Shown one piece after another: positions 30,473-59,654 of a DNA stretch of 60,371 bases. The notes beneath the pieces were generated by a model. That model was not told the DNA's origin and did no database searches. It saw only the letters and a program-made list of their open reading frames with translations. The position numbers and the translations under genes were made by a program. The stretch spans positions 1 to 60,371 of the forward strand of contig JBNKBE010000030.1 in the NCBI GenBank assembly GCA_050287085.1, in the 5' to 3' direction. This DNA comes from Polyangiaceae bacterium (GTDB taxonomy: Bacteria > Myxococcota_A > Polyangia > Polyangiales > Polyangiaceae). The first letter of the stretch is position 1, and every line of letters starts with the position of its first letter.

Positions 30473-32467
30473 TCAGCTAACCCCAGCCAGCGCGGGGAGT
30501 GCTATCCCTTGTCGGACACGTTCCAGGCGGGACTTGACTGCGGGGCGTTGCAAATACCTGGGCAGGAAGGGCGCCGGGACGATCACTCCGCGGCTCTGCA
30601 GTTCGTGTATGATGGGAAGATGTGCAAGGGCCACCTTGCCTAGGAATAAGGGGGCCAGTTCACCGCCCTCACGCAGGTATCCGAGCAGGCTGATCAAACC
30701 GCGGAGATAGATCATGTCCTTGGTGAGGCCTCCGCCACGGAAGACGCGCAGCACGACGCTGAACGCCGTACGTCGCGAAAAGCCGTAGCGGCATAGCAGA
30801 CGAAATACTTCCACGAAGCTGCCCCCTCGCAGCAAGGCATCCACCGCGAGAACGCGTGCGGCGAGCACGCGCAGTCGCGGTGGGGTCATGCCACCGGCGA
30901 GAAATTCCGCCAGTACCGCTAGACCCTCTTGCAGTTCATCGTAGCCGGCTAGGCCGGTCGAGAGCTGTTGCAGGCGTTGGGCCTTGCCGTTGTAGTAGGT
31001 GACCAGGTGCGTGCCCACTTCGTGCTGCAGCAAGGCGTCCACGCGAGAGGCAGTGCAGCGGTGGTGGCGTGACACCAATAGTTTGCCCTGAGATGCCATC
31101 ATGCCAGCCGGGAAGTCATCGAGCAGAACCACCGTGCCGGCGAAGCCTGACGCTTGATCGCGATAGGCGCCGAGCTCCGCTTCGGCGAAGCGACAGAACT
31201 GGACTGCGTCCACCGTTCCCCCTCCGCTGCCAGTCCGGGCGTTGTTGGGCACCCGTTCGAGGATGTCTTCGGCGGCCCGTACGAGCTCCGGAGTGCACGG
31301 ACCGTACAGCTGCTGACTCATGAGTACGAAGCGGTGGGTGCCGCGATCCGTTAGCATCGTCAGCTGTCGCTCGAGTTCTGCTTGCCGTTCGAGAAATAGG
31401 TTTGCCACAACCGGATCCTCGATCCGTTCGAGTGGCACCTTGTACAACTCGCGCTTGAGCAAGACAGGATCGATCGGAAGCGGACGGTAGCGCAGCTCCG
31501 GCGCTCGCTCGTAGCGGCTCTTGCGGAACGCGTTCCATGCGCCCTGGGAGTTGAAAGGGTTGATGGCCAGCAAAAAGTCGAAGCTACCCGTGAGCTCTGC
31601 GAGCTTTGCGTCCGCCTGCCAAACGCTGCGGACAAGCGCTCGCGGTCCGAGGGATAAGACGCTCCGTGCGGGATGGGTCGTTTGCGCCTTGATGAAAGCA
31701 AAGGCCGCATGTCGAAGCGAGCGCGCAAAGCGGGTGCGCAGCTGTCGCAGCAAGGCCGGGAAGATCTGCTCGCCGTCTTCCGTTCGGTAGATCGGCGACA
31801 CTTCCACGCCCAGCCAACTGCCGCCGCGCGCCGCCACCTCTCTTGGCAACATGAGGGGGCGGTGGGTCGCGCTGAGCAGGCTCAGGCGCGGCAGAGCCTG
31901 CACCTGTACCTTTCTTCCGCTCAGGCGCACGGTCGCGAGGGCCGACTCGAAGGCGTCAGCCGTGAGTCGGGCCTTGGGAGTGCCACCTTCGACCAACCTG
32001 AAGCGCAACGGAGATGTCTCGTTTGCGGGGCCGCTGGCCCACACTTCGACGAGCAGGCAGCCTCCGAAGTGGGTTTGCATCAGCGTGAGCAGTTCCGAGA
32101 CGAGCTCGCGTGCGAGCTTGCGGTTTGTGCGGCCAGCTTTCACGACGAGATGCACCGCTTCGCCGAAGATCAGCTGTTCCGTCCCGAGGTCGTCCGCGTC
32201 GTCTGGCTGAGCATAGACGCAGACGAAAGGCAAAGGACGATCGACGTGCAAGCGCGACCCTTCACCGAATTTTGCGGCTAGGGGCTTGGCTTCTTTGAAC
32301 TGGGCTTCGACCGCGGCCCGCAGCGTCGCGCGCGTCAGCGAATCACTGAAATGCGGGTGCGCTGGATGTGTAGCTTCAGACGGCGCCGCGTGGGCCTGTG
32401 CTGGTTCGGACTGCGCTGCAGGCGAGCGTGATGACCTTGACTGTGGGTCGGCGGACTCAGCAGTCAT
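30473..32467 (-). CDS. QEGLA-motif protein (DUF1704 / MATCAP-like gluzincin metallocarboxypeptidase)
   Basis: HEVGTH, ELQEGLAV, RVFRGGGLTKD.IYLRG. Confidence 0.9.
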   Translation of the reverse strand: MTAESADPQSRSSRSPAAQSEPAQAHAAPSEATHPAHPHFSDSLTRATLRAAVEAQFKEAKPLAAKFGEGSRLHVDRPLPFVCVYAQPDDADDLGTEQLIFGEAVHLVVKAGRTNRKLARELVSELLTLMQTHFGGCLLVEVWASGPANETSPLRFRLVEGGTPKARLTADAFESALATVRLSGRKVQVQALPRLSLLSATHRPLMLPREVAARGGSWLGVEVSPIYRTEDGEQIFPALLRQLRTRFARSLRHAAFAFIKAQTTHPARSVLSLGPRALVRSVWQADAKLAELTGSFDFLLAINPFNSQGAWNAFRKSRYERAPELRYRPLPIDPVLLKRELYKVPLERIEDPVVANLFLERQAELERQLTMLTDRGTHRFVLMSQQLYGPCTPELVRAAEDILERVPNNARTGSGGGTVDAVQFCRFAEAELGAYRDQASGFAGTVVLLDDFPAGMMASQGKLLVSRHHRCTASRVDALLQHEVGTHLVTYYNGKAQRLQQLSTGLAGYDELQEGLAVLAEFLAGGMTPPRLRVLAARVLAVDALLRGGSFVEVFRLLCRYGFSRRTAFSVVLRVFRGGGLTKDMIYLRGLISLLGYLREGGELAPLFLGKVALAHLPIIHELQSRGVIVPAPFLPRYLQRPAVKSRLERVRQGIALPALAGVS

Positions 32468-32564
32468 CGCTCACGCGGCTCGAAGCGGTTGAGTTTTCGC
32501 CTGTTCGCGCCGCGCCAGGCATGACGACATCGAGATGGGAACCTGCCAGAAACATGAGCTCAAT

Positions 32565-33611
32565 CTAAAGGGTGCACATATCGACGTTGTCGAAGTTTCG
32601 CCCGTAGAAGCCCATATAGCGCACCTTGCGTTCGAGGGCGTCGATTACCGTGCGTGAGAAGTTGATGTTGGTGAAGCGTTGAGCGCTGCCGAGCCCACCC
32701 GGAGAAAAGACGTTGATCTCCATCAGCTTGCTCCCAACGATATCCAATCCTACCAAGAACATGCCATCCTGCACCAACTTGGGGCGTACGATCTCGGCGA
32801 TGTGGAGCATCTCAGGGGTGATCTCCGCTTCGGCAATGGTGCCGCCGGCGTGCACATTGCTGCGCATGTCGCCGCCGGCGCGCTGCCGTCGAAAGGCGGC
32901 GTATTTGCCCTTTACCTGAAGCGGGCGACCGTTCATCATAAACAGACGCGTGTCCCCGCTTTGCGCGGCCGGCAGGTACTCCTGAGCGATGACAAATCCG
33001 TCACGGCTCACCGCGTCGATCATCTGATTGAGATTGGGCACGTCGTCTGGGCGCACCAGAAATACGTTGGCGCCGCCTGAGCCTTGCAGTGGCTTGAGCA
33101 CGATGGTGCCCCCCTGATCGCGGACGAAGTGCTTGATCTCCGATGCGTCCCGGGTGATCAGCGTCTTGGGGCGCACCTCTTCCGGGAAGAGCTGAAAGTA
33201 GATCTTGCTGACAGCCTTCGACAATCCGTTGGGGTCGTTGACGACAATCACACCTTCTCGCATCGCGGCGCGTCCAAATTCACTGGCAACCGTCGCGGCC
33301 CAGGGGCGTGAGTTAACGTCGTCCGAAGGGACATTTCTCAGCATCAGCACGTCTAGGGTGTTGATTGAAACGCGCTCGCGAACGGCATTCTTGCCTTGCA
33401 GGTCCGCCAGGAACGAAGCCCCGTCCTTGTATCGCCTACGGGGGACCGCAACACCTCGGGCGCGCACTCGATCGTCAGGGTCGAAAGCCAGGTCGCCTAC
33501 GCCGAAGTGCCACGCTTGGTGTCCGGCGTTGACCGCGGCCATCGCTAGTCGGGTCGTGGTGTAGCTCGCCTGTTCGGTCTTGACGTCGTTGACTACGAAT
33601 CCGATCTTCAT
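32565..33611 (-). CDS. gshB: Glutathione synthetase-like ATP-grasp ligase
   Basis: VVNDPNGL, KPLQGSGG.NVF, AQEYLPA...GDTR, RSNVHAGG, VGLDIVG..LMEINVFSPGG. The true substrate may not be glutathione. Confidence 0.85.
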   Translation of the reverse strand: MKIGFVVNDVKTEQASYTTTRLAMAAVNAGHQAWHFGVGDLAFDPDDRVRARGVAVPRRRYKDGASFLADLQGKNAVRERVSINTLDVLMLRNVPSDDVNSRPWAATVASEFGRAAMREGVIVVNDPNGLSKAVSKIYFQLFPEEVRPKTLITRDASEIKHFVRDQGGTIVLKPLQGSGGANVFLVRPDDVPNLNQMIDAVSRDGFVIAQEYLPAAQSGDTRLFMMNGRPLQVKGKYAAFRRQRAGGDMRSNVHAGGTIAEAEITPEMLHIAEIVRPKLVQDGMFLVGLDIVGSKLMEINVFSPGGLGSAQRFTNINFSRTVIDALERKVRYMGFYGRNFDNVDMCTL

Positions 33612-33646
33612 GTGCTCACTCCTCTCGCTCGTTTTGGCGAAGGGGT

Positions 33647-34561
33647 CTAGGTCTCGTTGTGTACATCCTCGATGGCGGCTTTGCCATCGTTTGCGGGGAC
33701 TCCGGGCGCACAGATCTCCTGCAGCGCCCTCAAGGTGGGTTCAACGGTGGCGCGAAGCGCGTCACCCAGGGCTGTTAGGTGCGCCCTATCCACCTCGCCG
33801 CTCCACTCGTCCATGAAGGTCTTCTTACATTCGACCGCCAGGGCGACGCCCTGCTTCGGGTAGTGGGTTCTGACCCACTGGGGCAGGTAGCCACCTCGAA
33901 ATTTCACGTTCTCACGGACATCGACGTTGGGGCCCGAAATGGGTTGGCGCCGCAAGGCTGCCATGAAGGTGCTGGCCACTGTTCCAAACCTATCACCGTC
34001 GAGCCAGGCGGTTCCAAGGTTGACTTCAGGATTGAGCTCGACGGGGTCGCAGCCCGCTAGCGGACCCCCTCGTCGATGGTTGTACGAGTGCAAGTCGTAC
34101 AACAAGAAGTAGCCATGGCGAGCCACCACCTTGTCCAGAACCTGTCGCAGCGCTGCGTAGAAGGCGTCGTGTTCGGCACGCGAGCGTTCAACCACGTCGG
34201 CGGGTGGCGGGGTGTCGTAGAGGCGGAGTCCCCAGCAATCGTCTGGGGATAGGTACACAGCCCGTTCCGGTGGGCGATTCATGTCCACCTCAAAACGAGA
34301 GCGGTGGACGATGACGCGCGTTTCTGCGAGATTCGTCAAGTGGTCGGTGTAGGGGTCTTCTTCGCGCAGGCGATCGGCTGCGGGCAGCACCATGTGGCGG
34401 ACTACTTCTGAACGGACCTCGTGCCCACAGTGAATGGCTGTTGCCACCACCGCTGAATCACCGCAGTGCATGCTGAAACCGCAGTGCATGCTAGAAACAG
34501 CACCGTCACTTTGGGGCTCCTTGACCCCCAGCCCATTTGGCTCCGCTGCCACGTTTGACAC
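33647..34561 (-). CDS. N-formylglutamate amidohydrolase family protein
   Basis: TAIHCGH, REEDPYTD, SRFEVDMNR, YDLHSYN, NVKFRGGY, LAVECKK. Confidence 0.9.
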   Translation of the reverse strand: MSNVAAEPNGLGVKEPQSDGAVSSMHCGFSMHCGDSAVVATAIHCGHEVRSEVVRHMVLPAADRLREEDPYTDHLTNLAETRVIVHRSRFEVDMNRPPERAVYLSPDDCWGLRLYDTPPPADVVERSRAEHDAFYAALRQVLDKVVARHGYFLLYDLHSYNHRRGGPLAGCDPVELNPEVNLGTAWLDGDRFGTVASTFMAALRRQPISGPNVDVRENVKFRGGYLPQWVRTHYPKQGVALAVECKKTFMDEWSGEVDRAHLTALGDALRATVEPTLRALQEICAPGVPANDGKAAIEDVHNET

Positions 34562-39338: not shown

Positions 39339-40796
39339 CTATGAGAGCGCCATGAGCCGCAGACGAACGTCGGCGATGAGGTTCTCCAGTAGATCCCCGG
39401 AGCTCGCTTCGCCCAACTCATTCAAAACGGCCTGAACCAGGGGCTGGCTTAGGAACGTGTCGGTGTCCGACCAGAGCGCGGCCTTCTGCATACGGCTGCG
39501 CGCGTGGTTCATGAGGTCGGGCGTGGGCTCGTTGTGGGCAATGTCGTTACGAAGCTCGCGGATGCGGCCCCCGAGCGCGACATCGAACTTCTTCAACGCG
39601 TCACTCTGGAGGAAGTACTGGGCGATGCGCGCACCGGGACCGCCGTCGCCGTCGTAAACCCAGTACCAATCGATGCCGTCGATCGTCTCTTTCAACTCGA
39701 ACGGCCGCTTCCGATCGTCGTCGGAGCCATCACCTTTTCTGAGGAGCTTGTCGCCCGTCGGCGCTTCGCCGCTCTTGACCTTGAAGCACCGGCGCTTGTT
39801 CGGGTCGGAGGAGCGCTCGATGCGCTTGCCGAGCCTGTCCCAGAGCGCGGCTTCGAAGAACGCCACGCTGCCGTGAACCGCTCTCGGAATGTCGCCCGCG
39901 CGAAGCGCCAGCTCAACGCGCAGCCCGGCCCGCACCGCCATGCGGCGGTGGTTCAAAACCGCAAGATCGCAGGCCGTCGGCAGGGGCAGCGATGAGGCAA
40001 AGCACGCCAGCCATTCGATGACCTGCGTCCACTCCTGGCCAGGCGCGCCTTCGAGATGGCTGACGGCACCCCACGCGCCGAGGAGGTTGCCCTTCTCGAC
40101 GAGCGAGAGGGCATGCCAGCGTGCGCGGTACGCAGCGGCTGGGTGGAACTTCTCTTCGACAGCTCGATCGTCTTGATTGGCGCGATTGCCATCGGGCACC
40201 TCGAGCGCCGTGACCCTCGGCCCGCCGACGCAGTGCAGCCGCACCAGCTCGTTGATCAGCTCATTGGCTGCCGCCAGGCCGCCCGTCGTTGCCACGAACA
40301 CGCGGTCATTTGGTTTCAGGCCATATGTGGCGCGGCCAACAGCTTTTGAGAGCATGGAGACCACCGAGCGCCGAACGACCGCGTCGACCTCGTTCGACGG
40401 ATCTTCGAGCTGCTCGTCTCCTGTCAGAAACGCTACACGCGTCACGTTCTCTACGCCGCGATCGCGAAGTCGGCACTCCATCACCTCGCCCGCGAAGCGC
40501 GGATCCCGAGCATCCTGCCGCCTAGTCTCGAGAATGAGTACCGACGTTGGCAGTGAGAGGGCGAAGTGCGCGAGTAGGGCATCGAGCTTCGGCGTGCAGA
40601 GAGGCAGGTCGCCCTCGGGAAACACCTTGATGAGGTCTCGACTCCTGCCCTTCGGAGCGTCGACCACCGACCACGAGCGCTCCTTGATCGCGTCGTGCAG
40701 CGTGCCGCAGGTGTTGCCGTCCAGCTTGTGCCGCCGTTCGTTCACAACGAGCTGCACGTCGGTTTGGCCCACCGTCACCACGAGCAGCTTGGTCAT
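39339..40796 (-). CDS. CARF-HEPN ancillary ribonuclease (Csm6/Csx1-like, divergent)
   Basis: CARF-like motif I LVVTVGQTD and motif II VFVATTGG; HEPN RxxxxH motif LRNDIAHN; ATGA overlap with the upstream cas7 gene. Confidence 0.75.
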   Translation of the reverse strand: MTKLLVVTVGQTDVQLVVNERRHKLDGNTCGTLHDAIKERSWSVVDAPKGRSRDLIKVFPEGDLPLCTPKLDALLAHFALSLPTSVLILETRRQDARDPRFAGEVMECRLRDRGVENVTRVAFLTGDEQLEDPSNEVDAVVRRSVVSMLSKAVGRATYGLKPNDRVFVATTGGLAAANELINELVRLHCVGGPRVTALEVPDGNRANQDDRAVEEKFHPAAAYRARWHALSLVEKGNLLGAWGAVSHLEGAPGQEWTQVIEWLACFASSLPLPTACDLAVLNHRRMAVRAGLRVELALRAGDIPRAVHGSVAFFEAALWDRLGKRIERSSDPNKRRCFKVKSGEAPTGDKLLRKGDGSDDDRKRPFELKETIDGIDWYWVYDGDGGPGARIAQYFLQSDALKKFDVALGGRIRELRNDIAHNEPTPDLMNHARSRMQKAALWSDTDTFLSQPLVQAVLNELGEASSGDLLENLIADVRLRLMALS

Positions 40797-43126
40797 GATG
40801 ACCTGCCGTTCTTGTAACGGCGGTTGCGCGAGTGCTCGGCGCGCAGCGTGGTGTGGAAGGTGTAGATGTGCCTCTCGCCGTTTCTGTCGGCCTGTTGCGG
40901 ACGCGGGTAGTCCGCCGCCTTCGGGTGGTTGCGACGATGGATGGCGAGCCATTCGTCCTGCGTCGCGGTCGTCTGGTGGTGCGTTGTCGCCCAGCCCACG
41001 AGGTCAGTCTCGGACTTGAGCATCGGCGCGTCACCAGCCTCATCGAGCAGTAGGAGCGCCTTCGCCTCGATGCGCACGCTGCCCCAGCCGAGTGGGCGTG
41101 CGTAACCGAGCTTCGAGCAGTAGCCATCGGTGTGCGTGCCACCGAGCGCACTCTTGAACTGGTCTGGGCAGAACGCGACAACGATCGCCGCCAGCTCGGC
41201 GGCGTCGAGATCGCGGAAGCGCACGGTGAATCGGAACTTGCGCCCAGGCTTCGACGCCTCGAGCGCGAGCGTGCTCCGGTCGTTTTGCCTGTTCGCATCG
41301 GAGGCGTCCTCGGCCTGCGCGCCCTCGCGATCGAGGTAGAACTTTCGCCCCGCCAGCTCGCCGGGCGCGTCGTAACCAGTGGCGTCGCCGTAGGTCACGA
41401 GCGTGGCCTTGTCCGAGGGCCGCGACCGCGGATGGTGCGGCTGCTTCAGGTAGTGTTCGACCGCGCTAGGTCGGGGCATGCCGAGTTCTTTGAGGAAGGT
41501 CGGCTTCAGGAAGCGGTGGTCATCACTGTCGCTCTCTTCGACGACCTCGAGGCCAGCATTGACGAATACGCGGCCCATGAGCTGCGCGTGGTCGTTCTCG
41601 CCGATGCCCGCGCTGCCCTCGTTGTCGCCGGTGTAGCCGAGGAGTCGCCGTACCGGTGACAGCTCCTTCGGTGCGCCATTTCCGCCCTTCTCGCGCTCAT
41701 TGTCGAGCTCATTGTCGAGCTCATTGTCGAGCTCATTGTCGAGCGGGAAGAGTCCGTGCCGTTCGTAGCCGCCCCCGCGTCGACGGACCGAGTCCGTGTA
41801 CGCCCAGCGGTAGTAGTAGTGCCAACCGAGCGATACGATGCACTTCTTCTCGATGTCCCACTCGACCCAGATCAGATCGCCGGGCTGGAAGACCTCGTCC
41901 TTCGCGGCCTTGAGGATTCGGTTTCGCGCGGCATCACCCTTCACGGTGTTGGGCACATCGGGATGCCGCTCGGAGAAGTGGCCGTGGTCGAGATCCGTGA
42001 GGTGCAGAACCGTTGCAAGGTAGCCGTCCTGAACCGCCTGCGAGAGAGTCGCCGTATCCGTCGGTTGACTCGGGTTTGCAGTGAGCCGCGTGTGGAGGTT
42101 GCGCTTGGAGTTGAGTCTCTCGCCCGCGCCTTGACCGCCTCGATATGCGGCACCGTTGCCGTCGTCGAAGCGGTAATAGTTCGCGTTCTGCTCCCGCCTC
42201 CTGTCGTAGCGAAGGTTCGTGGGCAGCAGCTCAAGCTTCGTCGGTACACGAATCTGGTTCGTGCCATCGATCGCCTTCAGCTCGACGCCGTCGTTCGGCA
42301 CGCGAGCGATGCGCGCGACGAGCTTCGGGTTCGGCTGGTTCGGAAAGAGCGCGTTCGGGCGGTACGAGTACGAACGCTCGGCGACGCGCTCCATCGGCGC
42401 GCCAAGCAGCGCGCCCAGCTCGTGGCGAAGCAGCCCCTTCAGCGAACCGCCGGGGATGATGACCGGCCGCTTCCTCCACGGCGCACGCAGTGGGCAGAGC
42501 ACCGACTTCTTGTTGGCGATTTGCCCAACGCCCGCGACGTTGGCGGGGACGGGCCAGTCGCTCTCGTTCTCTCCGACCTGTCCACGTTCCCAGCCGACGA
42601 GGAGCGGCGTGAGCGCCTCGAGCTCGAAGCGGATCTCGCCAGAGAGGCGGCCCGCGCTGCTCGTTCCGTCGTGCCAGATGGGAGCTGAGGTCGTCAGGTG
42701 CGTCGGGAGCGCGACGAAGCCGTAGGGCTTGCCGGGGAGCGGCTGCGCGTTGTTTTCCGGGGCTGCCTGTCGCCCCTGTTGCGGGCGGTGTCCACGACCG
42801 CGCGGAGCCTGGCCACTTCGTTGTTGCTGGAATCCCCCCTGTCGAGGTTGCTGCGCGGGTTTCGGCGCGGCGGTGGCTGCGATGCTCGTATCGCCGCCGT
42901 CGATCACTTCGAGCCCAGCGCCGTGCAGCTTCTCCCGCACCTGCTCAATGTGCGTGGGCTTGGCCGCGCAGATGACAAACTCGCTGGCCACGCTGGCTGC
43001 GACGATGTCAAGGTGTGGCATCCCGAGTTGGTTACTCTTCAGCCTGTTGATCGCGCCCCGGTCGCGCGGCTTGTCGTCGAGCGTACGGACGCGGATGCGG
43101 TGTTGCTTGTCGGGCTTGCCAGGCAT
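40793..43126 (-). CDS. Type III-D Cas7 with large insertion (TIGR03986-like RAMP) and an extra N-terminal domain
   Basis: PYGFV, SGEIRFELEALTPLLVG, IIPGGSLKG.LR, RLLGY, GRV, LGMPRP, GRKFY, FRFTVRF, G-loop KLGYARPLGWGSV. Confidence 0.85.
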   Translation of the reverse strand: MPGKPDKQHRIRVRTLDDKPRDRGAINRLKSNQLGMPHLDIVAASVASEFVICAAKPTHIEQVREKLHGAGLEVIDGGDTSIAATAAPKPAQQPRQGGFQQQRSGQAPRGRGHRPQQGRQAAPENNAQPLPGKPYGFVALPTHLTTSAPIWHDGTSSAGRLSGEIRFELEALTPLLVGWERGQVGENESDWPVPANVAGVGQIANKKSVLCPLRAPWRKRPVIIPGGSLKGLLRHELGALLGAPMERVAERSYSYRPNALFPNQPNPKLVARIARVPNDGVELKAIDGTNQIRVPTKLELLPTNLRYDRRREQNANYYRFDDGNGAAYRGGQGAGERLNSKRNLHTRLTANPSQPTDTATLSQAVQDGYLATVLHLTDLDHGHFSERHPDVPNTVKGDAARNRILKAAKDEVFQPGDLIWVEWDIEKKCIVSLGWHYYYRWAYTDSVRRRGGGYERHGLFPLDNELDNELDNELDNEREKGGNGAPKELSPVRRLLGYTGDNEGSAGIGENDHAQLMGRVFVNAGLEVVEESDSDDHRFLKPTFLKELGMPRPSAVEHYLKQPHHPRSRPSDKATLVTYGDATGYDAPGELAGRKFYLDREGAQAEDASDANRQNDRSTLALEASKPGRKFRFTVRFRDLDAAELAAIVVAFCPDQFKSALGGTHTDGYCSKLGYARPLGWGSVRIEAKALLLLDEAGDAPMLKSETDLVGWATTHHQTTATQDEWLAIHRRNHPKAADYPRPQQADRNGERHIYTFHTTLRAEHSRNRRYKNGRSS
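41695..41742. repeat. Perfect 12-bp tandem repeat x4 (encodes LDNE x4)
   Basis: GCTCATTGTCGA four times, in frame inside the Cas7-insertion gene. Confidence 0.95.
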
Positions 43127-45039
43127 CAGCGCTGCTCCTGGGTGAGGGTGAAGCCGAGGATTTCGCCGCCGACGTACCACTCGCGCAGAACCACGTTGCC
43201 CTGGCCGGTGCTAGCCGAGGAGAAGCGGGAAGAGCCGTGCAAGCGCGCGGGCGTGTGGACAACGCGAGTCTGTTTGGCGTCGTCCACCTTCGCGTCGACC
43301 TCTTTGATGACGATGAAGCGCCCACTACTCACAGTGCGGACGGCGCGCCAGACAGCGCGTTCGGCGTAGAACGCGATCTCGTCGACCTGGAGCTTGTCGT
43401 CTTCAGTCGGCCACTCACGCCCGAACGTCGCGGGCGGCGTATGCAAGTTGAGGTCGATGCTCGGATCGCACCACCACGCGACGAGCTTCTCACCAAGTGC
43501 CCACTTCGCCAGCTTCGCGGCCGCTCCGAGCGTGAGGGGCTCCGCGATCGTTCCGGTCGTCGTCTGAACCCAGGCGTCGGCGGCGGCGGGGCGGTCAAGG
43601 AAGGTGCGCTTCGCCTTCGAGGCGTTCGCAGCCTCTGACTGGGACTCCTTCGGCTGCACCCACGTCCGCGAGGACTTCGTCACGTCATCGTTGACCCACG
43701 GCTGCGCCCGCCAGTGGCCCGCGCCCGCACCGCGCGTCTTGTGACCGCCGATGGGCAAATGCCCAAGTGCACCAAGCGCGACCTGTCGATCAATGAGTTT
43801 GACGAGCTGCTCGACTTCCTCTGGCTTGCTGCCGTCGCCCTCGACGACAATGCGCACCGGGAACGTGCCCCGAAGCATGCGTACCGCGTCGCGCTTGGCG
43901 CTGCCGTAGGAGCCCGCCGAAAACTCGTCCTCGGCGTGCATGTGCAGCTTCGCGGCCACCCATTCGCCCACGGCGCGCGCGTCGCGAATCAGGATGCGGC
44001 TGCTCTTGCTGACGGTGCCGAAGGCTTGGCCTGCGACATCGTCCGCTCCGACATCGCCCTGCATGAGGTGGGGGTCCTTCACGTCGTGGCCTGCCGCGCG
44101 CTCCCTACGCGAGAAGGCATGACGGATCGGCCCGCGCACGCTCGCGCCGGGGAGCAGCGGGCGCTCCTTGCCTTTGGCGCCTTCCATCACCAACGCTCGA
44201 TCGGTGCTCAGTTCATCGGGCGTCGGCGATTCGGTTGCCCATACGGGCTTGGCCCAGTTACCATCACCCGTCGGCTGCACCGTGCGCTCGCTGGCATGCG
44301 CACCCACGGCGAACATGTCGAGCCCCCACGCCGCTTCGCCGGGGTCGGGCTTGTACTCACCGAATGAGACGTTCACGTCGAGCGTGCGGAAGCACCACGA
44401 GCGCGTCGGCGAGACGACCGGCGCGGCATCCAGCGCAGTCGAAAGCGTTCCTCGCCGAGACTTCACCCACGCCTCGTAGGCCGCCTCGTCGAAGCGGTAC
44501 GCTCTTAAATTCTCGATATGGCACCAGCCGAGTCCACGCGCGGCACCCCCGCCGAGCCAGCAGCGCCCCTTGGTCCAGTGCTCGGCGAGCACGTAGCCGA
44601 GGATGCCTTCGGCCTCGGAGAACTCGGCGTCATCGAGAGTGTAAGAGCGGTCCACACGGAAGCTCAGTTGCCAATTCGTGCCGGCGGGGATGACCTCGCG
44701 GTCGTAGAGCACGCCGCCTGCGCGCGCGCCGGTCTTGTGGCGAATACCGACGCCCGCGCGGATGAACGGGAAGCCTTTCGTCGTCGCGTCGGCGAATTCC
44801 CAGGCCGAGCGCCGCAGCGCCCCGTGCTTGATGTCGTCGGAGACTGCGCGCGGCAGCGGGTCGAACAAGCGGGTGGCCATCGCGACGGCCGCGCCCTTGA
44901 GGCCGCGCCCGACGAGCGTCGGTACGCCATCGACGAGCGCGAAGGGTTGGTCAGCGCTGGTCTCGCGATCGAGCCCGGACACCGAGAGCGCCGAGTCCTG
45001 CACGAGGGTGGCGGTGAAGAGCGTGAGCCTTGTGGTCAT
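43126..45039 (-). CDS. Cas7-Cas7 tandem RAMP with a fused C-terminal Csx19-like domain
   Basis: Two RAMP units (LVGRGLKG...G-loop LGGGAARGLG; LLPGASVRG...G-loop IGGHKTRGAG), then about 150 aa of beta-rich tail (VDEIAFYAERAVWRAVR...VVLREWY..ILGF) reminiscent of Csx19. The Csx19 call is less certain than the Cas7 calls. Confidence 0.75.
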   Translation of the reverse strand: MTTRLTLFTATLVQDSALSVSGLDRETSADQPFALVDGVPTLVGRGLKGAAVAMATRLFDPLPRAVSDDIKHGALRRSAWEFADATTKGFPFIRAGVGIRHKTGARAGGVLYDREVIPAGTNWQLSFRVDRSYTLDDAEFSEAEGILGYVLAEHWTKGRCWLGGGAARGLGWCHIENLRAYRFDEAAYEAWVKSRRGTLSTALDAAPVVSPTRSWCFRTLDVNVSFGEYKPDPGEAAWGLDMFAVGAHASERTVQPTGDGNWAKPVWATESPTPDELSTDRALVMEGAKGKERPLLPGASVRGPIRHAFSRRERAAGHDVKDPHLMQGDVGADDVAGQAFGTVSKSSRILIRDARAVGEWVAAKLHMHAEDEFSAGSYGSAKRDAVRMLRGTFPVRIVVEGDGSKPEEVEQLVKLIDRQVALGALGHLPIGGHKTRGAGAGHWRAQPWVNDDVTKSSRTWVQPKESQSEAANASKAKRTFLDRPAAADAWVQTTTGTIAEPLTLGAAAKLAKWALGEKLVAWWCDPSIDLNLHTPPATFGREWPTEDDKLQVDEIAFYAERAVWRAVRTVSSGRFIVIKEVDAKVDDAKQTRVVHTPARLHGSSRFSSASTGQGNVVLREWYVGGEILGFTLTQEQR

Positions 45040-47045
45040 CGTGCCCCCTTGCGCAGGTCTGCGCGCAGCCAGCGCACGAACACACGCGCGCAGAGTTCTT
45101 GTTGAGGCGCCTGGATCTTGTTCAGCTCGTTCAAGATCGCCTTCGCGTCCTTGTGCTTCCAGCTTTTTCCGCCCGCCGTCGTCGGGCTGAGGCGGCTCGT
45201 GAGCGCACCCTGGTTGTTGGCTTCCAGCTCGCCGACGAGATCGAGCCACTGCGAGAGGCTCGGTGGCTTCTGCCCGTTCCCATCCTTCTTGTCGGGCTTT
45301 GCCAGCGCGTCGTGTTGCCCGAACCATTTCCGGGTCGTCTTTGCGATGGCTTCCTCCGCGACGTCAGCGACAGGCATAGGTGGGCTGCTCGTGCCGACCT
45401 CCCTCGTCACACCGGGCAACACCGCGTCGAGGCGGAAACGCCCAAAACCCTCGTGCGTGCGCTCGCCGAGCCACTCATGCTTGGCCGCGCGCGCCGCCAG
45501 CCTAGCGACTCCCGCGCCTGATATCTCGAAGACCGAGCCTCGACGGATGGCTGCCGCAGGCATCCGCCACAGGCGGGAGGTGCCGTTGAAGCCGTGGACC
45601 ATAACATTGTCTTGCAGAGACTTGCCCAGCTGAACACTCTCGCCGAGTAGTGCCGTCAGTGCCTCCACATCGAGCGCGGTGCGCCAGCGCAGGTAGTCAT
45701 CCCGCACGAGTAGGTCGGAAGTGAGCGTGAGCAGCGCGGTGCTGTTTGTCGTCGTTGCTGCTGGGGCGCTAGCCCACGCAAGCTGCGCGACCTCGACCGG
45801 CGCCCCGGCGCGCCCAACACGTAGCCAGCGGCGACCTCCGAGCACGGGGCCAAGCTTCTCCGCGAGCTTCTTCAGGTCGTCAGGAGAGCCAGCTAGCTCG
45901 GCGAGGAAATGCGTTTCTTCAACAATCTGCTCGATGGCGAAGAGTGAGGCGTCAGCCTGCTTTGGATCGGGCCTGCCGTTGCGCAGGCGCACCCGGCGTG
46001 CAGGGCGGAACGACAACCACTCCGGGTTTGCGGCCTCGCGGAATACGAAGAGGTCGTCCTCGGGGCGCTTGAGCTTCTCTTGCACGCTCCATGCATCCAC
46101 TCGTTTCGTGGGTTTGGTCGCCAGCGCCCACCAGGGCACGTCACCGGCCGCGCCCTTCGGCTTCTCGCTCTGCAGCGAGAGCGGTGCAGGCAACACCTCA
46201 ACGCCTTCGAGCTTCGAAGGCGCATGCGGCAGTGGCAGTGCATCGCTCACGGAGACCTTCCCCGACGTGAGCAGCGAGGCTGTTGCCCGATCGCCCTCGG
46301 AGATGAGCCAGCCGGCGACGGCACCGAGTAGCGTGCGGCCCGGCACGAAAGCAAGGCTCGGGACCAGGTTGTCAGGTGTCGCCGTTGCGGTGATGCAGAG
46401 CGGATCCCGGTTCTTGAGCAGCAGCAGCAGGTGGCCCGTTGGGGCACCGATCTTCTTGGGTGTGCTCGCGACGTCCGATAGGGCGAGCGTCACCCGGCCC
46501 GCGCCGGCGGCGCGACCGCCGCCGAGGGCATCGACCTCCAGCACGAGCCGCTTCAGCGTGTCGAGCTGGCTCGCGGGCAGCTCAATCTCGCCGACTAGCT
46601 TCGTCCCCTTCGGCACGTACTCGATGACCCGCAGCGTGTCGTCCTTCGGCGCGCGGTTATCGAAAGCCTCGCGCGCGGTGGAGCGCCAGATGTGGGTTTC
46701 GGGGCTGTCGTTCGCGTAGAGCGACGTGAAGACGGCGCGTTGCTGCTCGCTCCCTGCGCGACCGAAGAACGCGCCGTCATCACGGCCCAGCCTGCGAGCA
46801 GCGTCACGCAGCACGCCCTCGAGGTGCGAGGCCCAGATGACGGGGCGATCTCGTCGATCACGCGCGATGAGCGCGTCGATGCCACCACCACCCGAGCCCG
46901 ACCCGAGGTGTGCATCCGAGGTGAACTGGGCGGTCAGCGTGCGACGTACCCAGCCGGTCCCGCTCTGCGCTGTACCGACGTCAGAACCGGTGGGCTCAGG
47001 AGCAGGGGGCCGCTTCGGGAAGTGCGCCTTGCTCTTCCTAGACAT
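45036..47045 (-). CDS. Cas7-Cas5(Csx10)-Cas11 fusion
   Basis: SDAHLGSG..IDALIARD..PVIWASHLEGVLR and G-loop LGGGRAAGAG (Cas7); FVPGRTLLGA, LTSDLLVRD, RGSVF and LGERTHEGFGRF (Cas5/Csx10); helical tail PSLSQW..L..W (Cas11-like). Confidence 0.8.
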   Translation of the reverse strand: MSRKSKAHFPKRPPAPEPTGSDVGTAQSGTGWVRRTLTAQFTSDAHLGSGSGGGGIDALIARDRRDRPVIWASHLEGVLRDAARRLGRDDGAFFGRAGSEQQRAVFTSLYANDSPETHIWRSTAREAFDNRAPKDDTLRVIEYVPKGTKLVGEIELPASQLDTLKRLVLEVDALGGGRAAGAGRVTLALSDVASTPKKIGAPTGHLLLLLKNRDPLCITATATPDNLVPSLAFVPGRTLLGAVAGWLISEGDRATASLLTSGKVSVSDALPLPHAPSKLEGVEVLPAPLSLQSEKPKGAAGDVPWWALATKPTKRVDAWSVQEKLKRPEDDLFVFREAANPEWLSFRPARRVRLRNGRPDPKQADASLFAIEQIVEETHFLAELAGSPDDLKKLAEKLGPVLGGRRWLRVGRAGAPVEVAQLAWASAPAATTTNSTALLTLTSDLLVRDDYLRWRTALDVEALTALLGESVQLGKSLQDNVMVHGFNGTSRLWRMPAAAIRRGSVFEISGAGVARLAARAAKHEWLGERTHEGFGRFRLDAVLPGVTREVGTSSPPMPVADVAEEAIAKTTRKWFGQHDALAKPDKKDGNGQKPPSLSQWLDLVGELEANNQGALTSRLSPTTAGGKSWKHKDAKAILNELNKIQAPQQELCARVFVRWLRADLRKGAR

Positions 47046-48543
47046 GGGCGGCCTCCTCGGCGCTGTCGGTCCGAGCGGTGTTGCGACCGAGGCGCGTGAT
47101 CTCGGCGATCTCCACGAGGTCGAGGAGCGCAGTGATCGATGCGTTGCCCGCGGGTTGCCACGGCTCCCTCACGCCCGCTTTGGCGAGCGGCCCCTTCGCC
47201 TCTTGCGGCAGCTCAGCGAACGCCAGCTCCGAGAGCGCGCGACCACGCGATAGCTGCTCGACCAGGTACCGAAGCTGCGAGCGCGGCGCGTGCGTGAGTT
47301 GTTGAGCGCCGCGCACCAGCCCTTGCAGCGAGTCGACCCGATGCTCGCCGAGCACATCGACCGGCCGCTGCGAGAGCACGCGCAGCTCGCTCTCGCTGCC
47401 GCGCAGCCAGTCGCGCCGACGCACCTTCACGGGGTCATCGACCCACGCCGTGCTGAAGACGGCCCAGTCGACGACGGAGCGCTTCGGTTCGCCCTCCGAG
47501 AGCCCACGGAAGCGGCGCTTCGCGGAAGCTGCGAGCTGCTCGGCGACCTCGTGCAGCCGATGGATGGGGATGGTGTGCTTGGCGAAGACCACGCCAACGC
47601 CGAGGGTCAGCTTGAAGCGATTGCTGTCCGTCTGGAGCGTCTCGAGCTCTGCGCAGAGGGTGACGACGAAGGGCAGCGCGATCTCTGCGCGGGCCACGAG
47701 CAAGAGGTCATCGCCGCCGAGCATCAGCGGGATGAGCGGCGCTCGGCCGGTGTCGGGGCAGTGCGTGTTGATGGCCTTCTGTACGGCGCACCGGAGGAGC
47801 ACGCGGTTCCTATGAAAGAACGCGGCACGCTCGCTGTCGCTCCCATCCTTCCCGACGCCGCTGCCGACGCCGTTGCCGTCGGCGTGGATAAGCGCGAGGT
47901 AGCCGTCGCCCACCAGCTCCTTCAGTTCTCGGGGGCGTTCGAGTGTCCGGAGCTTCGTTTCCGCGCTCAGTAGACTCGCGAGGTCTTTGGCCTCACCTCC
48001 TTTGGCGCGCCGCTCGGCATTGTGCCGATGCGCCACGTCGAGAGAGACGGAAGGGGAGTCATCGCCCTGTTCGACAATGGCCGACGCGAGCCCGCGCCCG
48101 GTCCACTCGCAGGGTGCGAGCACCGGCAGCTCGGTCGAGACATGCGCCTGGCTCTTTGCGCACGGTTTGCCGCCGATGGAGACGCGGAAGCGTAGGCCCG
48201 GGAGGGTCTCTCGCAGGAGCTGCCCGGCCTCCCTTACGAAAGTGTCGGCACCTGTTCCAAACTGCGCCTCGAAGTGCCCGCCGTCGCGCGAGAGAATGCC
48301 GTCCCTCGCGTCAGCGGCGGGATCGTCGTGGTCTTTCAGAGGATCGCTGTCGCAGGTACGCGGGAACGTCTCGTCGCTCGGGCTGAGCGTCCAACCGCGC
48401 CCGGTCTCGCGTGCAAGCTTCGGCAGTGCAACGCGCAGTGTTTCGCCGAGGAGCGCGTTCGCTCCGACCATCGCTCGCAGGCGCGGCACCGCGAAGAGCC
48501 ATGTCTGGACGCGCTGGAACTCGATATGAACACGCGGTGTCAT
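47038..48543 (-). CDS. cas10: Minimal Cas10 (no HD domain, intact Palm2 GGDD)
   Basis: RVQTWLF..PRLRAMVGAN, GGHF, PCEWTG, LIHADGNGVG, PLMLGGDDLLLV, LGVGVVF..HTIP...AEQL..SAK, VDW; GGAGG RBS. Confidence 0.9.
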   Translation of the reverse strand: MTPRVHIEFQRVQTWLFAVPRLRAMVGANALLGETLRVALPKLARETGRGWTLSPSDETFPRTCDSDPLKDHDDPAADARDGILSRDGGHFEAQFGTGADTFVREAGQLLRETLPGLRFRVSIGGKPCAKSQAHVSTELPVLAPCEWTGRGLASAIVEQGDDSPSVSLDVAHRHNAERRAKGGEAKDLASLLSAETKLRTLERPRELKELVGDGYLALIHADGNGVGSGVGKDGSDSERAAFFHRNRVLLRCAVQKAINTHCPDTGRAPLIPLMLGGDDLLLVARAEIALPFVVTLCAELETLQTDSNRFKLTLGVGVVFAKHTIPIHRLHEVAEQLAASAKRRFRGLSEGEPKRSVVDWAVFSTAWVDDPVKVRRRDWLRGSESELRVLSQRPVDVLGEHRVDSLQGLVRGAQQLTHAPRSQLRYLVEQLSRGRALSELAFAELPQEAKGPLAKAGVREPWQPAGNASITALLDLVEIAEITRLGRNTARTDSAEEAAHV

Positions 48544-48988: not shown

Positions 48989-50638
48989 TCATTCATCCGG
49001 AACGAACATGCCTAGTCCGAAGTGGGCGCCGTAACCCAGCGCGAGCGGGCCCCTCACAGGTTGTTCGAACACCACGCGGAAGCCGTAGCCTAGGTTGCTA
49101 CTCCGCGCCCCTCCGCCCTGTCGCGAGCGCAGGGTTTCAAACTCTAACCAACGCAGCGGTTGGTCTCGTACGTAGGTTTCGGCGATGGGATCGACGCGCA
49201 ATACGGCGGGATAACCTCCTTCGCGCAGCAGACGTCGCAGATCGTGCTCTGGGGAGCCGATCTGCAGACCACTTTCGTCCAGCTTCGGCGCTCCCGACCG
49301 AGTTGCCTTGGGATAACGCGTTGGAACAAAAGGCGTGCGAGAGCACCATGTGTCAGCTTCTACGAGTATCGAGCATTGCCCGGCGTCGGCGTTGAGGCCG
49401 GCAAAGTCTTCTCGATGCCCTAGTCCCAGCAGAATCAACTGAAGCTCGCGTGGAGCCTTCAGCTCACGCCCCTTCAGCTTCCTGAGCCGGGTGAGTGCTT
49501 GCCGCGCTCGCGGATCGAATCCCATTGGGGCAAAGAGTGTGATGTGGCTGATGGAGCGGCGAGTGCCGTTAACTTCAGGCAATACGTAGGCGTGTTGGTT
49601 GCCACGCAGGGGCCCGCCTGTAGCGTCTTTTCCGGCGAAGACTGGAGCTGCGTCAGAGAGACTCATCAGGCATCGGCGGGTCAATTCCGCAATCGGTAGA
49701 GCTTGTGTCAAGCGGGGCGGGACCTGACTTGCTACGGCAAAGCGCGCAACGGTGGGAAACGGGGGGCTCCCTGTAGTTGACGTTCGCAGCGGCGCTGGCG
49801 AGAGGGCGTCTGAGGGGCGAGTGTAGTCGAGCCAATGGGTGCCAGGGGCCGAGCTCCAACGTTGCTTGTACAGAGCTGTGGTATCCGCCTCGAGCGCATC
49901 GAGCAGCGTGCCGGGCAGGGCGTTGGCGACATCGTCCCTATCCTTTCTGCTCAGCTTTGCTGATTCCGGCGCCTTGCCCTTGGCTTCGAGTGCTCGACGT
50001 AGGTCTTCCAATTTGCGCGAGAGCAATTCCTCCATAGTGCTAGACTTCCAGGCGGCGACGGCTTGCGTCGAGAGGGGAGCTTGAAGCCGGATCAGTTCTT
50101 CGCCGGCGGCTGGTGTTTGCTTGGCGGCCAGCGGTCTGCAATTGGCAACGAAGGTCGGGGCGAGTTCAGCCTCGGGATTCTGTACTAGAGAGGCATGAGC
50201 CCAGGATTCCGCTCGTCCAAGGTAGGACAAGCGGTCTAGAAGCCTTGACAATGCCGCTTCCTGTTTCGGTAGCAGCGTCACTTTGGGCCATACAATAGCG
50301 AGGCACTCTTGTCGGGCCACGTGTACGAAGGCATCAAGGATCTTGGTTGTTGCTTCTCTGCCCTTGTCCAACTTGCCTAGGGGCATGTAGTGGCGGGAAT
50401 GGGAGGCTACCGCGGGAGGCAGCGAGTAGTGGGGCGTCTCCGAGTTCATAGACTCGAGCAGTTCCGCTAGCTGTTCGCGGTCGATTATGTCTTTGCCCTT
50501 GAGGTGCCAGGTTGCCACGAGTGCTCGCAGGAGTCGCCATGGACTTGGCGGCCATTCAACGGCTCCTTCGTTGACGTGCTGGCCCCAGGGGGTCGCGTGA
50601 TATCGCCCTGCTAGGAAGGTAAGCTCAATGGCCAGCAT
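48989..50638 (-). CDS. csb2: Type I-G Csb2 (Cas5-Cas6 fusion)
   Basis: GRYHATPW..EWPPSPWRL.RAL, YLGRAESW, HAYVLP, W.SRTPF, C-terminal Cas6 G-loop GPLALGYGAHFGLGMF. Confidence 0.93.
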   Translation of the reverse strand: MLAIELTFLAGRYHATPWGQHVNEGAVEWPPSPWRLLRALVATWHLKGKDIIDREQLAELLESMNSETPHYSLPPAVASHSRHYMPLGKLDKGREATTKILDAFVHVARQECLAIVWPKVTLLPKQEAALSRLLDRLSYLGRAESWAHASLVQNPEAELAPTFVANCRPLAAKQTPAAGEELIRLQAPLSTQAVAAWKSSTMEELLSRKLEDLRRALEAKGKAPESAKLSRKDRDDVANALPGTLLDALEADTTALYKQRWSSAPGTHWLDYTRPSDALSPAPLRTSTTGSPPFPTVARFAVASQVPPRLTQALPIAELTRRCLMSLSDAAPVFAGKDATGGPLRGNQHAYVLPEVNGTRRSISHITLFAPMGFDPRARQALTRLRKLKGRELKAPRELQLILLGLGHREDFAGLNADAGQCSILVEADTWCSRTPFVPTRYPKATRSGAPKLDESGLQIGSPEHDLRRLLREGGYPAVLRVDPIAETYVRDQPLRWLEFETLRSRQGGGARSSNLGYGFRVVFEQPVRGPLALGYGAHFGLGMFVPDE

Positions 50639-50641
50639 GGC

Positions 50642-53776
<3,135 letters not shown>

Positions 53777-53784
<8 letters not shown>

Positions 53785-56242
53785 CGTAGCCACCCGCTTG
53801 TTCCGTACGACTTGCTCGCCAGTCCGCGACTCGCACCAGCATTTCCAGCAAGGCGAGCCGGAAGGGACCGAGATCGGGTGCGTCCCGCAGAGAAAGCGTG
53901 CGTTCGAGCCAGCTACCAGAGCCGAGACGCATGACCGATAGGTCGAGAGCTACGTTTTCCAACGAACGCTCATCAGCCAATTCCAGCGCCAACAAGGTAT
54001 CACCGTCCCACACGCCGCGCGCAAACAGGCGGTCCTGCTCTGCCGGTGCGGCCTCGCCCGGGAGCGCCCGAATTGACAGGCGAACTTTCCCATGATGAGC
54101 GGCGACCAAATAGGCAACCAGGTTTCGAAATCGCTCGCTGGGGGCTGAGCCCTGAGTGAGCCAAGCGAGTGCAGACGCCAGTTCATGGCGGAAATAGGGG
54201 CGTGTAGCTGTCGAGCGAAATTGATGATTGGACTTTGCCCACGGTCCAGGGCCCACGGGCTGGGCCGAGGGAAGCTCAGCCACGGGTGAAAGCAGCTTAT
54301 CCTGAAACGCCGGGTGAGCCTTGCCTACGTCGTGCCAGAGCCCGGCGGTGCGTAGAGCATCGGTGAAGTCGTCAAGATGAAGTGCGCGGCCTACGCGCTC
54401 CGCTTCATCACGCACGTGCCCCAGATGATCGCTTAGCCGCACCCACCTCCCACCGAGGAATTGGCTCGCCGGATCGTCGTCGTAGGTGCTTTCGCCGGGT
54501 CGGGTCGGGTCGTCGGGGGCGGTCGGTGGGGTAGGTTGTTTGAGGCCAACTTCTCCGGTCCAGCCCAAGTCAGGATCATAACCACCCGCAGTCGGGTGGA
54601 GCAGTAGTACTTGCCCAGCACGAAGCGCGCTTTCGCGTTGCCACACCTTCTCCAAAGGGTTCCAGCGCCACGCTCCAAGGGGTGTATTGCGAGCTTTGTC
54701 TTTCCGGTATCTTTGATCTAGTTTGGTTGCGAATTGTCGCGCCGAGTGAACGGATACTCGGCACAGTTCGTCGCGCTGGGGAGGCGGAAGGGTTCCATCG
54801 GGCTCGCTTTCAAAATGGCGCCAGTAGAACTGCACATCGGTATCGTTTGCATCCCTTACGTAGCGCGATACGTCGATGTCGTCTCCCGATAGATCAGCCG
54901 TGGTATCGAATAGTTCGAGCAGATCTCGACGTCGCAGTACCGGGCGTACAACTTCCGCGGGATGATATTGGAGCCCTTGAAGAGCCTGAGGACCAGCGTC
55001 GCGCGCGGTCTCGTCCAGCTCGCTCAGAAGACGTCGTGACTGGGTGAGCTCCGCTGCGTCGTACGGAAGTGTGGTGTCTGCTTTGGGGTCATCCGACTGG
55101 ATATCGATCCAGAATACCGCAGCCTCCTCTTCGCCGTATCGATTGCAGCGACCGAAGCGCTGGACCAGTGACGACCAGGGAGCCAGCTCCGTAAATAGTG
55201 TTCGACTGGATACGTCAACGCCAGCCTCCAAAGCCTGTGTTGCGACCACGATACGTGGCCGGCTTCGTTCAAGCAGTAGCTGCTCGTGTCGACTGCGATC
55301 GAGCCTGCGGAAGCGGGAGTGAACTAGCGCCACGTCGTCGGAAGTGACGCCATCGAGCTCTTGCAATGCCTGATAGAGGGCTTGGGCGCGTTGCACGCGA
55401 TTGACGATGACGAGTGTGAGGCCTCCGCGGGTGTCGTGTTCCACCGCGACGCGTGCTGCGAGCTTTCGGGCGTAGCTGTGCACTTCTGTGGACGAGTTCA
55501 ATACTACGTCGTCCAGCTCTTGAATGGGCTTCTTTGCCCCAACACGCGCTTGTACGAGCGAGCTAGATAGATCTTCGCTTTCGAGCCTACTCTTGAGCCA
55601 ACCGTTCGTCGGTCTCGGATGGTCAACGGTGCGCAGCTGGGCATCCCCAAGGGTGGCGCTCATCCACAACGAATGAACACCTCCAAGCACTCCGAGCTTC
55701 GTTCGTAGGCCTTGAAGCTGAGCGCTGGTCTCGATTGCAACCCCCATCAACTGTGTTTCGTCGAAGATCCAGAAGCTGTTGTTGTTGAGCAATGCGAAGT
55801 GAACTGGCCACATATAGCGACTCATGGCAAAGCCACGATTCAATGCGCGAGACAGCAACATATCTTGCGTTCCGACGATAATTGCGGAGTGCTCAGGGTT
55901 GTGTTGCCATTCCTCGTCCACATCGCCGCCCATTAGGACGTGCACTGTTGGAGCCGGCAGGTCGCGTTGCTCGAAGAGCGGGGCTGCCGCCTCGCACCAG
56001 TTGGTGGCTACCTGCGCTGTCTGATGAACCAGCACGCGCATGGGGAGGCAGTAGATCAGACGTAGTCCGGTGGTTGGATCTCCGCCAAGTCGCTTGTAGA
56101 GCCACGCGACGATGGCGGCTGCCGTCTTGCCTAGGCCGGTTGGAATGTCGAGCAATGTGGGCCACGGCTCTGTGCCCAGGCGGGCCTGATACGGAAAAGG
56201 GGCTCGACCCGTCACCGTCTCAAAAAACTTGTCGTAGTTCAT
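53777..56242 (-). CDS. cas3: Type I-G Cas3 (SF2 helicase with C-terminal HD nuclease)
   Basis: PTGLGKT, DETQ, MSAT, HSRFR, ATQALEAGVD, QRFGRCNR; C-terminal LSDHL, WHDVGK, RHELAS, HHGK, ADWRAS. Confidence 0.95.
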
Positions 56243-56321
56243 GTAGTCCCGGGCTTGTATCTATTGAGAGCTCGATTCCGAACGCGGGTTGGGGAGCCAG
56301 GAGGTGTCATAGTGCGAACCA

Positions 56322-56338
56322 TTGACATCCGAGGTCAT
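56322..56338. promoter_or_regulatory. Putative operator TTGACATCCGAGGTCAT (TGAC-N7-GTCA) upstream of cas3
   Basis: Palindromic half-sites; 14/17 identical copy upstream of cas4-cas1. Confidence 0.55.
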
Positions 56339-56385
56339 GGGCAGCAGCGCGAGTGATTGAGCTCATGGAGCGCCTGTGTTGGAGG

Positions 56386-57477: not shown

Positions 57478-57832
57478 TGGTAGTTGAACCGTGGCGCATG
57501 CGCCGGTCTCAAGTCAACAGCGCCGTTGCACTGGAGGCCAGAGCGGATGTTGCCACAACGTTTGTTCCCAAGTGAGGCATCGACCTAGTGCTGTCGGATT
57601 ACAGAGCACCTCGTGAAGTAGTGGCTCAGTGCCAGAGGTTGCGTTCGCGGCACTTCTTAATGAAGTGACTGTTTGACGTCGGGGCACATTTTCACGTGTT
57701 GCTGGAGCCAGCAGAAGGCTCTGATGAATTCATCGGATCCGAATTCATACCCTGGAGAACGACCATAGGAATTAGAACGCCCTGCGAATGTTCAGTAGCG
57801 GGGGACGACGGACCAGAGCGTATCCTAGGTTG

Positions 57833-59652: not shown

Positions 59653-59654
59653 GC

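Follow-up and report, generated by a model that had tools for sequence, protein, structure and literature searches.

The window analysed here (60,371 nt, positions 1 to 60,371 of contig JBNKBE010000030.1, assembly GCA_050287085.1) comes from a Polyangiaceae bacterium and very probably encodes a type III-Dv CRISPR effector in which csx19 has merged into the upstream double-Cas7 gene cas7-2x, so that a tethered Csx19 would sit at its usual place in a complex of four chains. The merged gene is an open reading frame (ORF) at 43126–45039 on the minus strand, the translation of which is stop-free and yields 637 amino acids (aa): two Cas7 domains, a linker of ~36 aa, and a beta-rich tail of 154 aa. 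A first-pass annotation of the same DNA, made by a model from the letters and a list of ORFs, had described a tail that continues in frame without a stop after the G-loop of the second Cas7, and had proposed a Cas7-Cas7-Csx19 fusion. The continuous frame is as described. The G-loop IGGHKTRGAG of the second Cas7 occupies aa 430–439 (43723–43752), and the AWWCDP, VDEIAFYAERAVWRAVR and VVLREWYVGGEILGF motifs quoted from the tail all lie within the final 154 aa. Two RAMP stretches precede the tail, according to PF03787 and to a genome scan. The stop codon of the fusion gene overlaps the ATG of the cas7-insertion gene (TGATG at 43128–43124); hence, there is no room for another gene between them. 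TIGR03984, the Csx19 family model, finds no match in this genome (96.8% complete). The earlier statement that a stand-alone csx19 is absent before cas7-insertion is correct.

The junction was compared in 88 related loci, duplicates included: 8 from GTDB genomes and the 80 best of the 84 that metagenomes yielded. Eighty carry the full fusion, three are fused and truncated by a contig end, three are fused but interrupted further upstream, within the Cas7 part, one is uninformative, and one (L039) has its frame broken in the linker. In 86 of the 87 informative loci, the tail is thus in one frame with the second Cas7; this includes L087, which has a stop in its first Cas7 yet is fused at the junction. 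Among the compared loci, 70 tails remain at <90% identity, and the eight named genomes represent seven phyla (the Pseudomonadota and Myxococcota assignments are our assumption from the genome names). When aa 440–637 were used as a query against proteins of 350–1115 aa, a size range that cannot reveal split forms, 338 matches were obtained; the 120 of these that were listed had a coverage of 98–100%, an identity of 63–90% (the query aside), and mostly a length of 620–660 aa. With only the tail as query, 39 clusters were obtained from 1.84 billion representatives, and full-length fusions extended down to ~30% tail identity. The relatives bear database names such as RAMP, Csm3 or hypothetical, and the full protein falls in a 64-member RAMP cluster of the ESM Atlas (643 aa) that is named hypothetical. 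Of 401 genomes of the phylum, three, among them the present one, gave strong matches to the fusion clade. The first-pass annotation had advised that homologues be checked for an assembly frameshift, and their common frame across seven phyla upholds the fusion. The join of Cas7 and tail is neither chance nor an assembly slip.

An AlphaFold model of the tail, built from 110 aligned sequences, had a pLDDT of 90.5 and a pTM of 0.87. In a Foldseek search of 350,542 chains, the sole matches at E ≤ 0.001 were 8s9t_B (E 5e-4, prob 1.00) and 8s9u_B (E 7e-4). A VIA search of 48,161 chains likewise returned 8s9t_B, with Z 9.7 and an rmsd of 3.3 Å over 133 residues (6–154 of the model, 9–193 of the chain), and the next-best chain had Z 5.2. 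8s9t_B is the Csx19 protein of Synechocystis, a 193-aa member of TIGR03984. The comparison with Csx19 structures that the first-pass annotation had suggested thus singles out this subunit in both programs. Alignment by hhalign with a profile of 21 canonical Csx19 sequences covered 37 columns only (P 0.0018, probability 14.7%) and fell on the central E-x-x-F strand; the tail also has a motif of its own, WWC(D/E)P. Searches of Protein Data Bank (PDB) sequences with the tail gave nothing meaningful, and the ESM Atlas gave no usable match to it. The tail is encoded between cas7-2x and cas7-insertion, which is the csx19 position of a III-D operon. Because of the structural match, the gene position and the weak profile match, and with a negative family HMM on the other side, the modelled tail is supported as a domain of Csx19 fold that has diverged and lies outside the curated TIGR03984 sequence family. 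With this fold, this position and the frame retained in nearly all relatives, the fusion proposed in the earlier annotation is supported.

According to the available sections of two papers on the Synechocystis III-Dv complex, Csx19 is a core subunit, present in one copy and lying between Cas5 and Cas10, that touches the CRISPR RNA (crRNA) and whose loss prevented pull-down of the complex (PMC11026444); F71 of Csx19 caps the 5' handle, and sub-complexes without Csx19 were observed (bioRxiv 10.1101/2022.06.13.496011). In these two sources, F71 and R145 are the residues that touch the handle, and Csx19 dissociates in native mass spectrometry. Going by the cleavage positions in the former, the second Cas7 domain of Cas7-2x stands at a distance of two units from the Cas5/Cas10 base (PMC11026444), so that a Csx19 fused to it needs a tether that runs back. 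In the fusion clade, the spacing between the G-loop and the WW motif is 86–122 aa, with a median of 90 (209 distinct segments), and the mean column conservation along the linker is 0.77, 0.54 and 0.69, as compared with 0.84 for the tail. The length of the linker and its pattern of conserved ends and variable middle fit a tether, though they do not prove one.

If the Synechocystis structure is taken as a guide, one chain would supply the backbone with two Cas7 units that cut RNA, and the ~36-aa tether would run back along the filament and bring the Csx19 cap next to Cas5 and Cas10 at the crRNA's 5' handle. The complex would consist of four proteins (Cas10, Cas7-5-11, Cas7-Cas7-Csx19 and Cas7-insertion), not five, and its crRNA would be expected to start with the 8-nt handle AUUGAAGC. 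Target RNA would be cut at three Cas7 sites, and cyclic oligoadenylate (cOA) would be made for a nuclease with CARF and HEPN domains. Both activities are inferred for this system because the aspartates at catalytic positions, the GGDD motif of Cas10 and the RNxxAH motif of the CARF protein are conserved. D30 of the first Cas7 aligns with D33 of Synechocystis III-Dv, described as a catalytic residue in the available text of PMC11026444, and is kept in all 113 aligned homologues. D280 of the second Cas7, a candidate catalytic residue equated with Synechocystis D246 by motif position only, is kept in 112 of the 113, and D57 of Cas7-5-11 is at the profile position of Synechocystis D26. GGDD is present in 61/61 and RNxxAH in 56/61 of the loci scored. 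The fusion itself probably arose once in this clade, by loss of the stop/start between neighbouring genes, and its likely use would be a fixed 1:1 delivery of a subunit required for assembly.

Several results count against a tethered Csx19 in a four-chain effector, and they are weighed here and in the next paragraph with the alternatives. The out-of-frame locus L039 differs by a 31-nt indel in the linker from the otherwise identical, fused L043. This would suit an assembly artefact or a one-off read-through mutation merging two genes, as would single-base gaps in the linker of a short diverged contig in run X5. The contig comparison, for which indels were taken from the rows listed, used assembled contigs, not raw reads, and the one contig identical to the window (X1) is possibly its source. 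The contig X4, from a different study, covers 43000–45295 with 190 substitutions, yet its only gaps are two that compensate each other (44503 and 44512), far from the junction. Given this and the 86 fused loci among 87, an artefact has a negligible probability, and conservation over seven phyla refutes it. That the tail is unrelated to Csx19 and shares with it a common beta-sheet arrangement would be suggested by the silence of the family HMM: the search against TIGR03984 (cut-off 35 bits) proposed in the first-pass annotation failed to recognise the tail or the whole protein at E ≤ 1 or any of 35 aligned tails, and Pfam and PADLOC scans of the tail gave no Csx19 match. The tail and 8s9t_B have an identity of 11% and a TM-score of 0.50 at the rmsd given above, and the tail is ~40 aa shorter than the Synechocystis protein. 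The Z of 9.7 is moderate, little above the 7–8 typical of models without a clear match. However, from sets of 350,542 and 48,161 chains, the single clear match of two programs was the very subunit that is encoded at this position of a III-Dv operon, which makes an unrelated tail highly improbable.

A genuine fusion could also have a tail that has changed its job or its docking site, for instance to the 3' side near Cas7-insertion, or that serves as Csx19 in trans for a neighbouring complex. The strong divergence from canonical Csx19, the distance of two Cas7 units between the second Cas7 and the Cas5/Cas10 base, according to the order of cleavage sites in the available text of PMC11026444, and the persistence of the gene in four loci that lack cas10 and cas7-5-11 upstream would favour such a change. 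The full-length AlphaFold model, with a pLDDT of 37.5, is too poor to give the geometry of a tether. On the other hand, 133 of the 154 residues retain the fold, the distance from G-loop to WW motif is never <86 aa, as a tether predicts, cas7-5-11 is kept in 62 of 66 loci with >2.5 kb upstream, and III-Dv already has long linkers that cross the complex (PMC11026444, available text); a changed job is thus unlikely. The other four of the 66 loci have no cas10 or cas7-5-11 directly upstream. In these (L022, L028, L044 and L048), the intact fusion gene, cas7-insertion and the CARF gene lie directly behind genes of a type I-G system, and neither cas10 nor cas7-5-11 was found in the 4.4–6.5 kb of upstream DNA. 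Upstream frames were read in L022, L028 and L048, and L044 is 97% identical to L048 in that part. The four represent three lineages with ~77–79% DNA identity and have the fusion gene at ~6570–8470 (L022, L028 and L048) or 4473–6371 (L044). Cas7-Cas7-Csx19, Cas7-insertion and CARF-HEPN might thus form a portable RNA-cutting module that plugs into I-G loci, uses crRNA made by Csb2 and, in some lineages, works in the absence of Cas10 and Cas7-5-11; its tethered Csx19 would cap the 5' handle, which is left nearly free in I-G complexes. This is quite improbable; a simple deletion, or a cas10 elsewhere in the genome, is a more likely explanation. Finally, Csx19 could also or mainly be a free protein, produced from an internal start or by cleavage of the linker. 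A cluster of in-frame GTG/TTG/ATG codons lies 31–33 codons before the WW motif (45 instances), a start-like codon with a Shine-Dalgarno-like word is present in 23 of 83 loci, and some short database proteins begin near the start of the domain (P0167 and P0174–P0176). However, an ATG in the linker was found in just 15 of 83 loci, none with a Shine-Dalgarno-like word; the start-codon cluster coincides with the Val that comes first in the domain, and this Val has the codon GTT in the window; and a free product leaves the retention of the open frame unexplained. A search for stand-alone tails of 74–300 aa gave 34 proteins, and the 17 inspected start at scattered places, mostly on contigs of 0.5–4 kb. 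As judged by their sequences, these look like fragments or frameshifts, a few of which may be free forms. A free Csx19 is therefore very unlikely, and the tethered subunit is retained as the preferred interpretation.

The only plasmid record that matches the full fusion protein is pTs485 of Candidatus Thiodictyon syntrophicum. Its III-D locus (WP_100923248–WP_100923252) has the gene order found here, with a 515-aa Cas7-2x that is 31.7% identical over aa 6–447 and, at the csx19 position, a separate gene for a hypothetical protein of 182 aa with tail-like motifs (WP_100923251.1; L118:9521–10069, NZ_CP020372.1). In hhalign, the 182-aa protein matched the tail profile with E 4e-4 (87 columns, probability 35%); it gave no significant match with the canonical Csx19 profile (E 0.17), and no NCBIfam model matched it. 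It is likely an unannotated divergent Csx19, and the plasmid likely has the unfused sister layout of the fused clade. A quick tree built from 46 Cas7-2x sequences separates all 34 fused rows from the rest by a branch with SH-aLRT 90, and Thiodictyon is adjacent to them (99). This suggests a single origin of the fusion in the clade, the tree having long branches and a midpoint root, and 11 of 20 canonical loci having been left out for lack of an extracted frame (one re-entered via a longer locus).

TIGR03984 matches were found in 6 of 301 genomes of the phylum of the window and in 17 of 251 genomes of another phylum, and in 22 of these 23 the match lies in a frame of <300 aa. The exception, G254, encodes a 779-aa III-Dv Cas7-2x with an HMM-detectable Csx19 (80 bits) at its C-terminus (contig C42, equal to L095:8076–10415, plus strand), and its cas7-insertion gene is upstream of cas10. 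In the tree this fusion groups with canonical systems, and among 7,999 candidates scored no relative other than itself was found. Thus, the G254 fusion, seen in one genome, probably arose independently.

The operon, which comes after a complete type I-G module, is arranged in the order cas10, cas7-5-11, cas7-cas7-tail, cas7-insertion and CARF-HEPN (Table 1). The family profile of the 669-aa protein matches the Cas7-Cas5-Cas11 chain 8s9t_A with E 3e-13, and its Cas11 part is assigned by position.

Table 1. Features of the fusion gene and of its neighbourhood in the window (JBNKBE010000030.1).
Feature	Coordinates	Strand	Evidence
Csx19-fold domain, putative, divergent (aa 484–637 and stop codon)	43126..43590	-	AlphaFold, Foldseek, VIA
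Linker (aa 448–483)	43591..43698	-	ends conserved, middle variable and charged
Second Cas7 domain (~aa 213–447)	43699..44403	-	PF03787 match at aa 289–440
First Cas7 domain (~aa 1–185)	44485..45039	-	top PDB sequence match is Cas7-2x, 8s9t_D
cas10, short (~500 aa), GGDD, no HD-domain match	47038..48543	-	PADLOC Cas10 E 9e-68; in Pfam, PF22335 only
cas7-cas5(csx10)-cas11-like fusion, 669 aa	45036..47045	-	RAMP and Csx10/Cas5_IIId matches below cut-off or without one
cas7-insertion, TIGR03986 family, 777 aa	40793..43126	-	180.9 bits, cut-off 161.35
CARF-HEPN (Csm6-like) ancillary nuclease, 484 aa, RNDIAH	39339..40793	-	PADLOC CARF Csm6-like E 7e-229
Type I-G module: csb2, cas7g (csb1), cas8g, cas3g	48989..56242	-	all four above NCBIfam cut-offs
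CRISPR array start, first three 36-nt repeats, at contig end	60163..60344	+	hairpin and 3' ATTGAAGC

An identical repeat is present in 9 copies on contig C38 and 11 on C77, which makes 23 copies over three contigs. A search for Cas6 with two models only, PF10040 and TIGR01877, found none in the genome, and csb2 of the adjoining I-G module is a candidate for the crRNA maturase. Csb2 of type I-G has been described to cut a 36-nt repeat and leave an 8-nt handle (bioRxiv 10.1101/2022.08.08.503147, available sections). Because of this activity, and because the local repeat has a hairpin, it is plausible that crRNA is made by Csb2 and shared with the III-D module here. In the flanks examined, I-G genes are absent from many relatives, and the pairing with type I-G is therefore not general.

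The closest characterised system is III-Dv of Synechocystis sp. PCC 6803 (PDB 8S9T/U/V/X; PMC11026444; bioRxiv 10.1101/2022.06.13.496011). Both systems have the order cas10, cas7-cas5-cas11, cas7-2x, csx19 and cas7-insertion, a Cas10 with GGDD and without a working HD domain, aspartates at catalytic positions (D280 and D57 being matched by motif or profile position), the Csx19 fold, and an accessory gene of the Csm6 type. They differ in that Csx19 is here fused to Cas7-2x, giving four predicted chains as compared with five, and in that no cas6 was found in this genome and the module adjoins type I-G. Of the features that characterise III-Dv, the gene order and the GGDD-containing Cas10 without HD are thus present; a separate csx19 is not, and an own cas6 was not found with the two models used. 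The likeness of the tail to the Csx19 family TIGR03984 lies in the fold, the gene position and the central E-x-x-F strand motif; in contrast to that family, the tail is not scored by the HMM, has the WWC(D/E)P motif and is fused. The Thiodictyon plasmid shares the gene order and has the nearest unfused Cas7-2x found, with two separate genes in place of one.

A reduction in the number of chains by fusion of neighbouring genes, together with a last Cas7 that bears an insertion, is also a feature of III-D2 (Cas7x3, Cas7-5 and Cas10; PDB 9WXH–9WXJ; PMC13294483) and of Cas7-11 of III-E. In III-D2, according to the available text of PMC13294483, the Cas7 genes are joined, csx19 and cas11 are absent, SAM-AMP is made, and the system is paired with CorA. 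Here, in contrast, Csx19 is retained by fusion, Cas7-insertion is separate and the accessory protein is a CARF-HEPN. The single Cas7-11 effector of III-E/III-I was not matched, NF041225 giving 35 bits (cut-off 700) and NF049957 giving 13 bits (cut-off 800).

In the available sections of PMC11026444, bioRxiv 10.1101/2022.06.13.496011, PMC13294483, PMC12669027 and PMC6546367, csx19 is either a separate gene or absent, and the term 'csx19' does not occur in three supplements of PMC12669027. No description of a Cas7-Cas7-Csx19 fusion was found in the full-text papers searched, where a mention could still stand in a figure or table. The locus thus represents a conserved, apparently undescribed form of type III-Dv with four predicted chains, in which Cas7-2x carries a divergent Csx19 as a fusion. 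Gene fusion is already a known theme in III-D, and the variant does not amount to a new immune mechanism. What it brings to the III-D fusion series is a further branch: csx19 is lost on the published path to III-D2 and III-E, whereas the clade described here keeps it by fusion. Retention by fusion, seemingly on two independent occasions, fits a need for Csx19 in the presence of Cas5 and Cas10. The clade also reveals a Csx19 subfamily that goes unrecognised by current HMMs, so that such loci are read as lacking csx19. An in-silico design of a single-chain III-Dv omits two subunits, Csx19 among them (bioRxiv 10.1101/2022.06.13.496011, available sections). The fusion clade offers a natural, conserved tether for Csx19 and a four-gene III-Dv in which the role of Csx19 could be tested.

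Further observations concern the neighbouring genes. Beside the I-G system of the window (48989–60344), WYL-like, cas4-cas1-like and cas2-like genes were noted by eye. In two of the loci in which the fusion gene follows I-G genes (L028:4360–6576 and L048:4333–6570), Csb2 has 738–745 aa, ~200 aa more than usual, and seems to end in another Cas6-like part (L028 shows two TIGR02165 stretches). The cas7-insertion gene of the window contains a 12-nt tandem repeat in four copies (41688–41747), which encodes in-frame DNEL repeats, and in L002:10465–11991 the Cas7-insertion has just 508 aa as compared with ~770 in other loci, suggesting a partial loss of the insertion. The III-D operon of L004 and L006 sits as an insertion between anti-phage genes that resemble DUF1156 and DUF499, with scores below cut-off. 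Elsewhere in the window, a glutathione-synthetase-like gene and its neighbours were seen by eye at 30473–34561 on the minus strand, followed from 34595 on the plus strand by pgsB/pgsC-like poly-gamma-glutamate genes in a region that extends to 36614.

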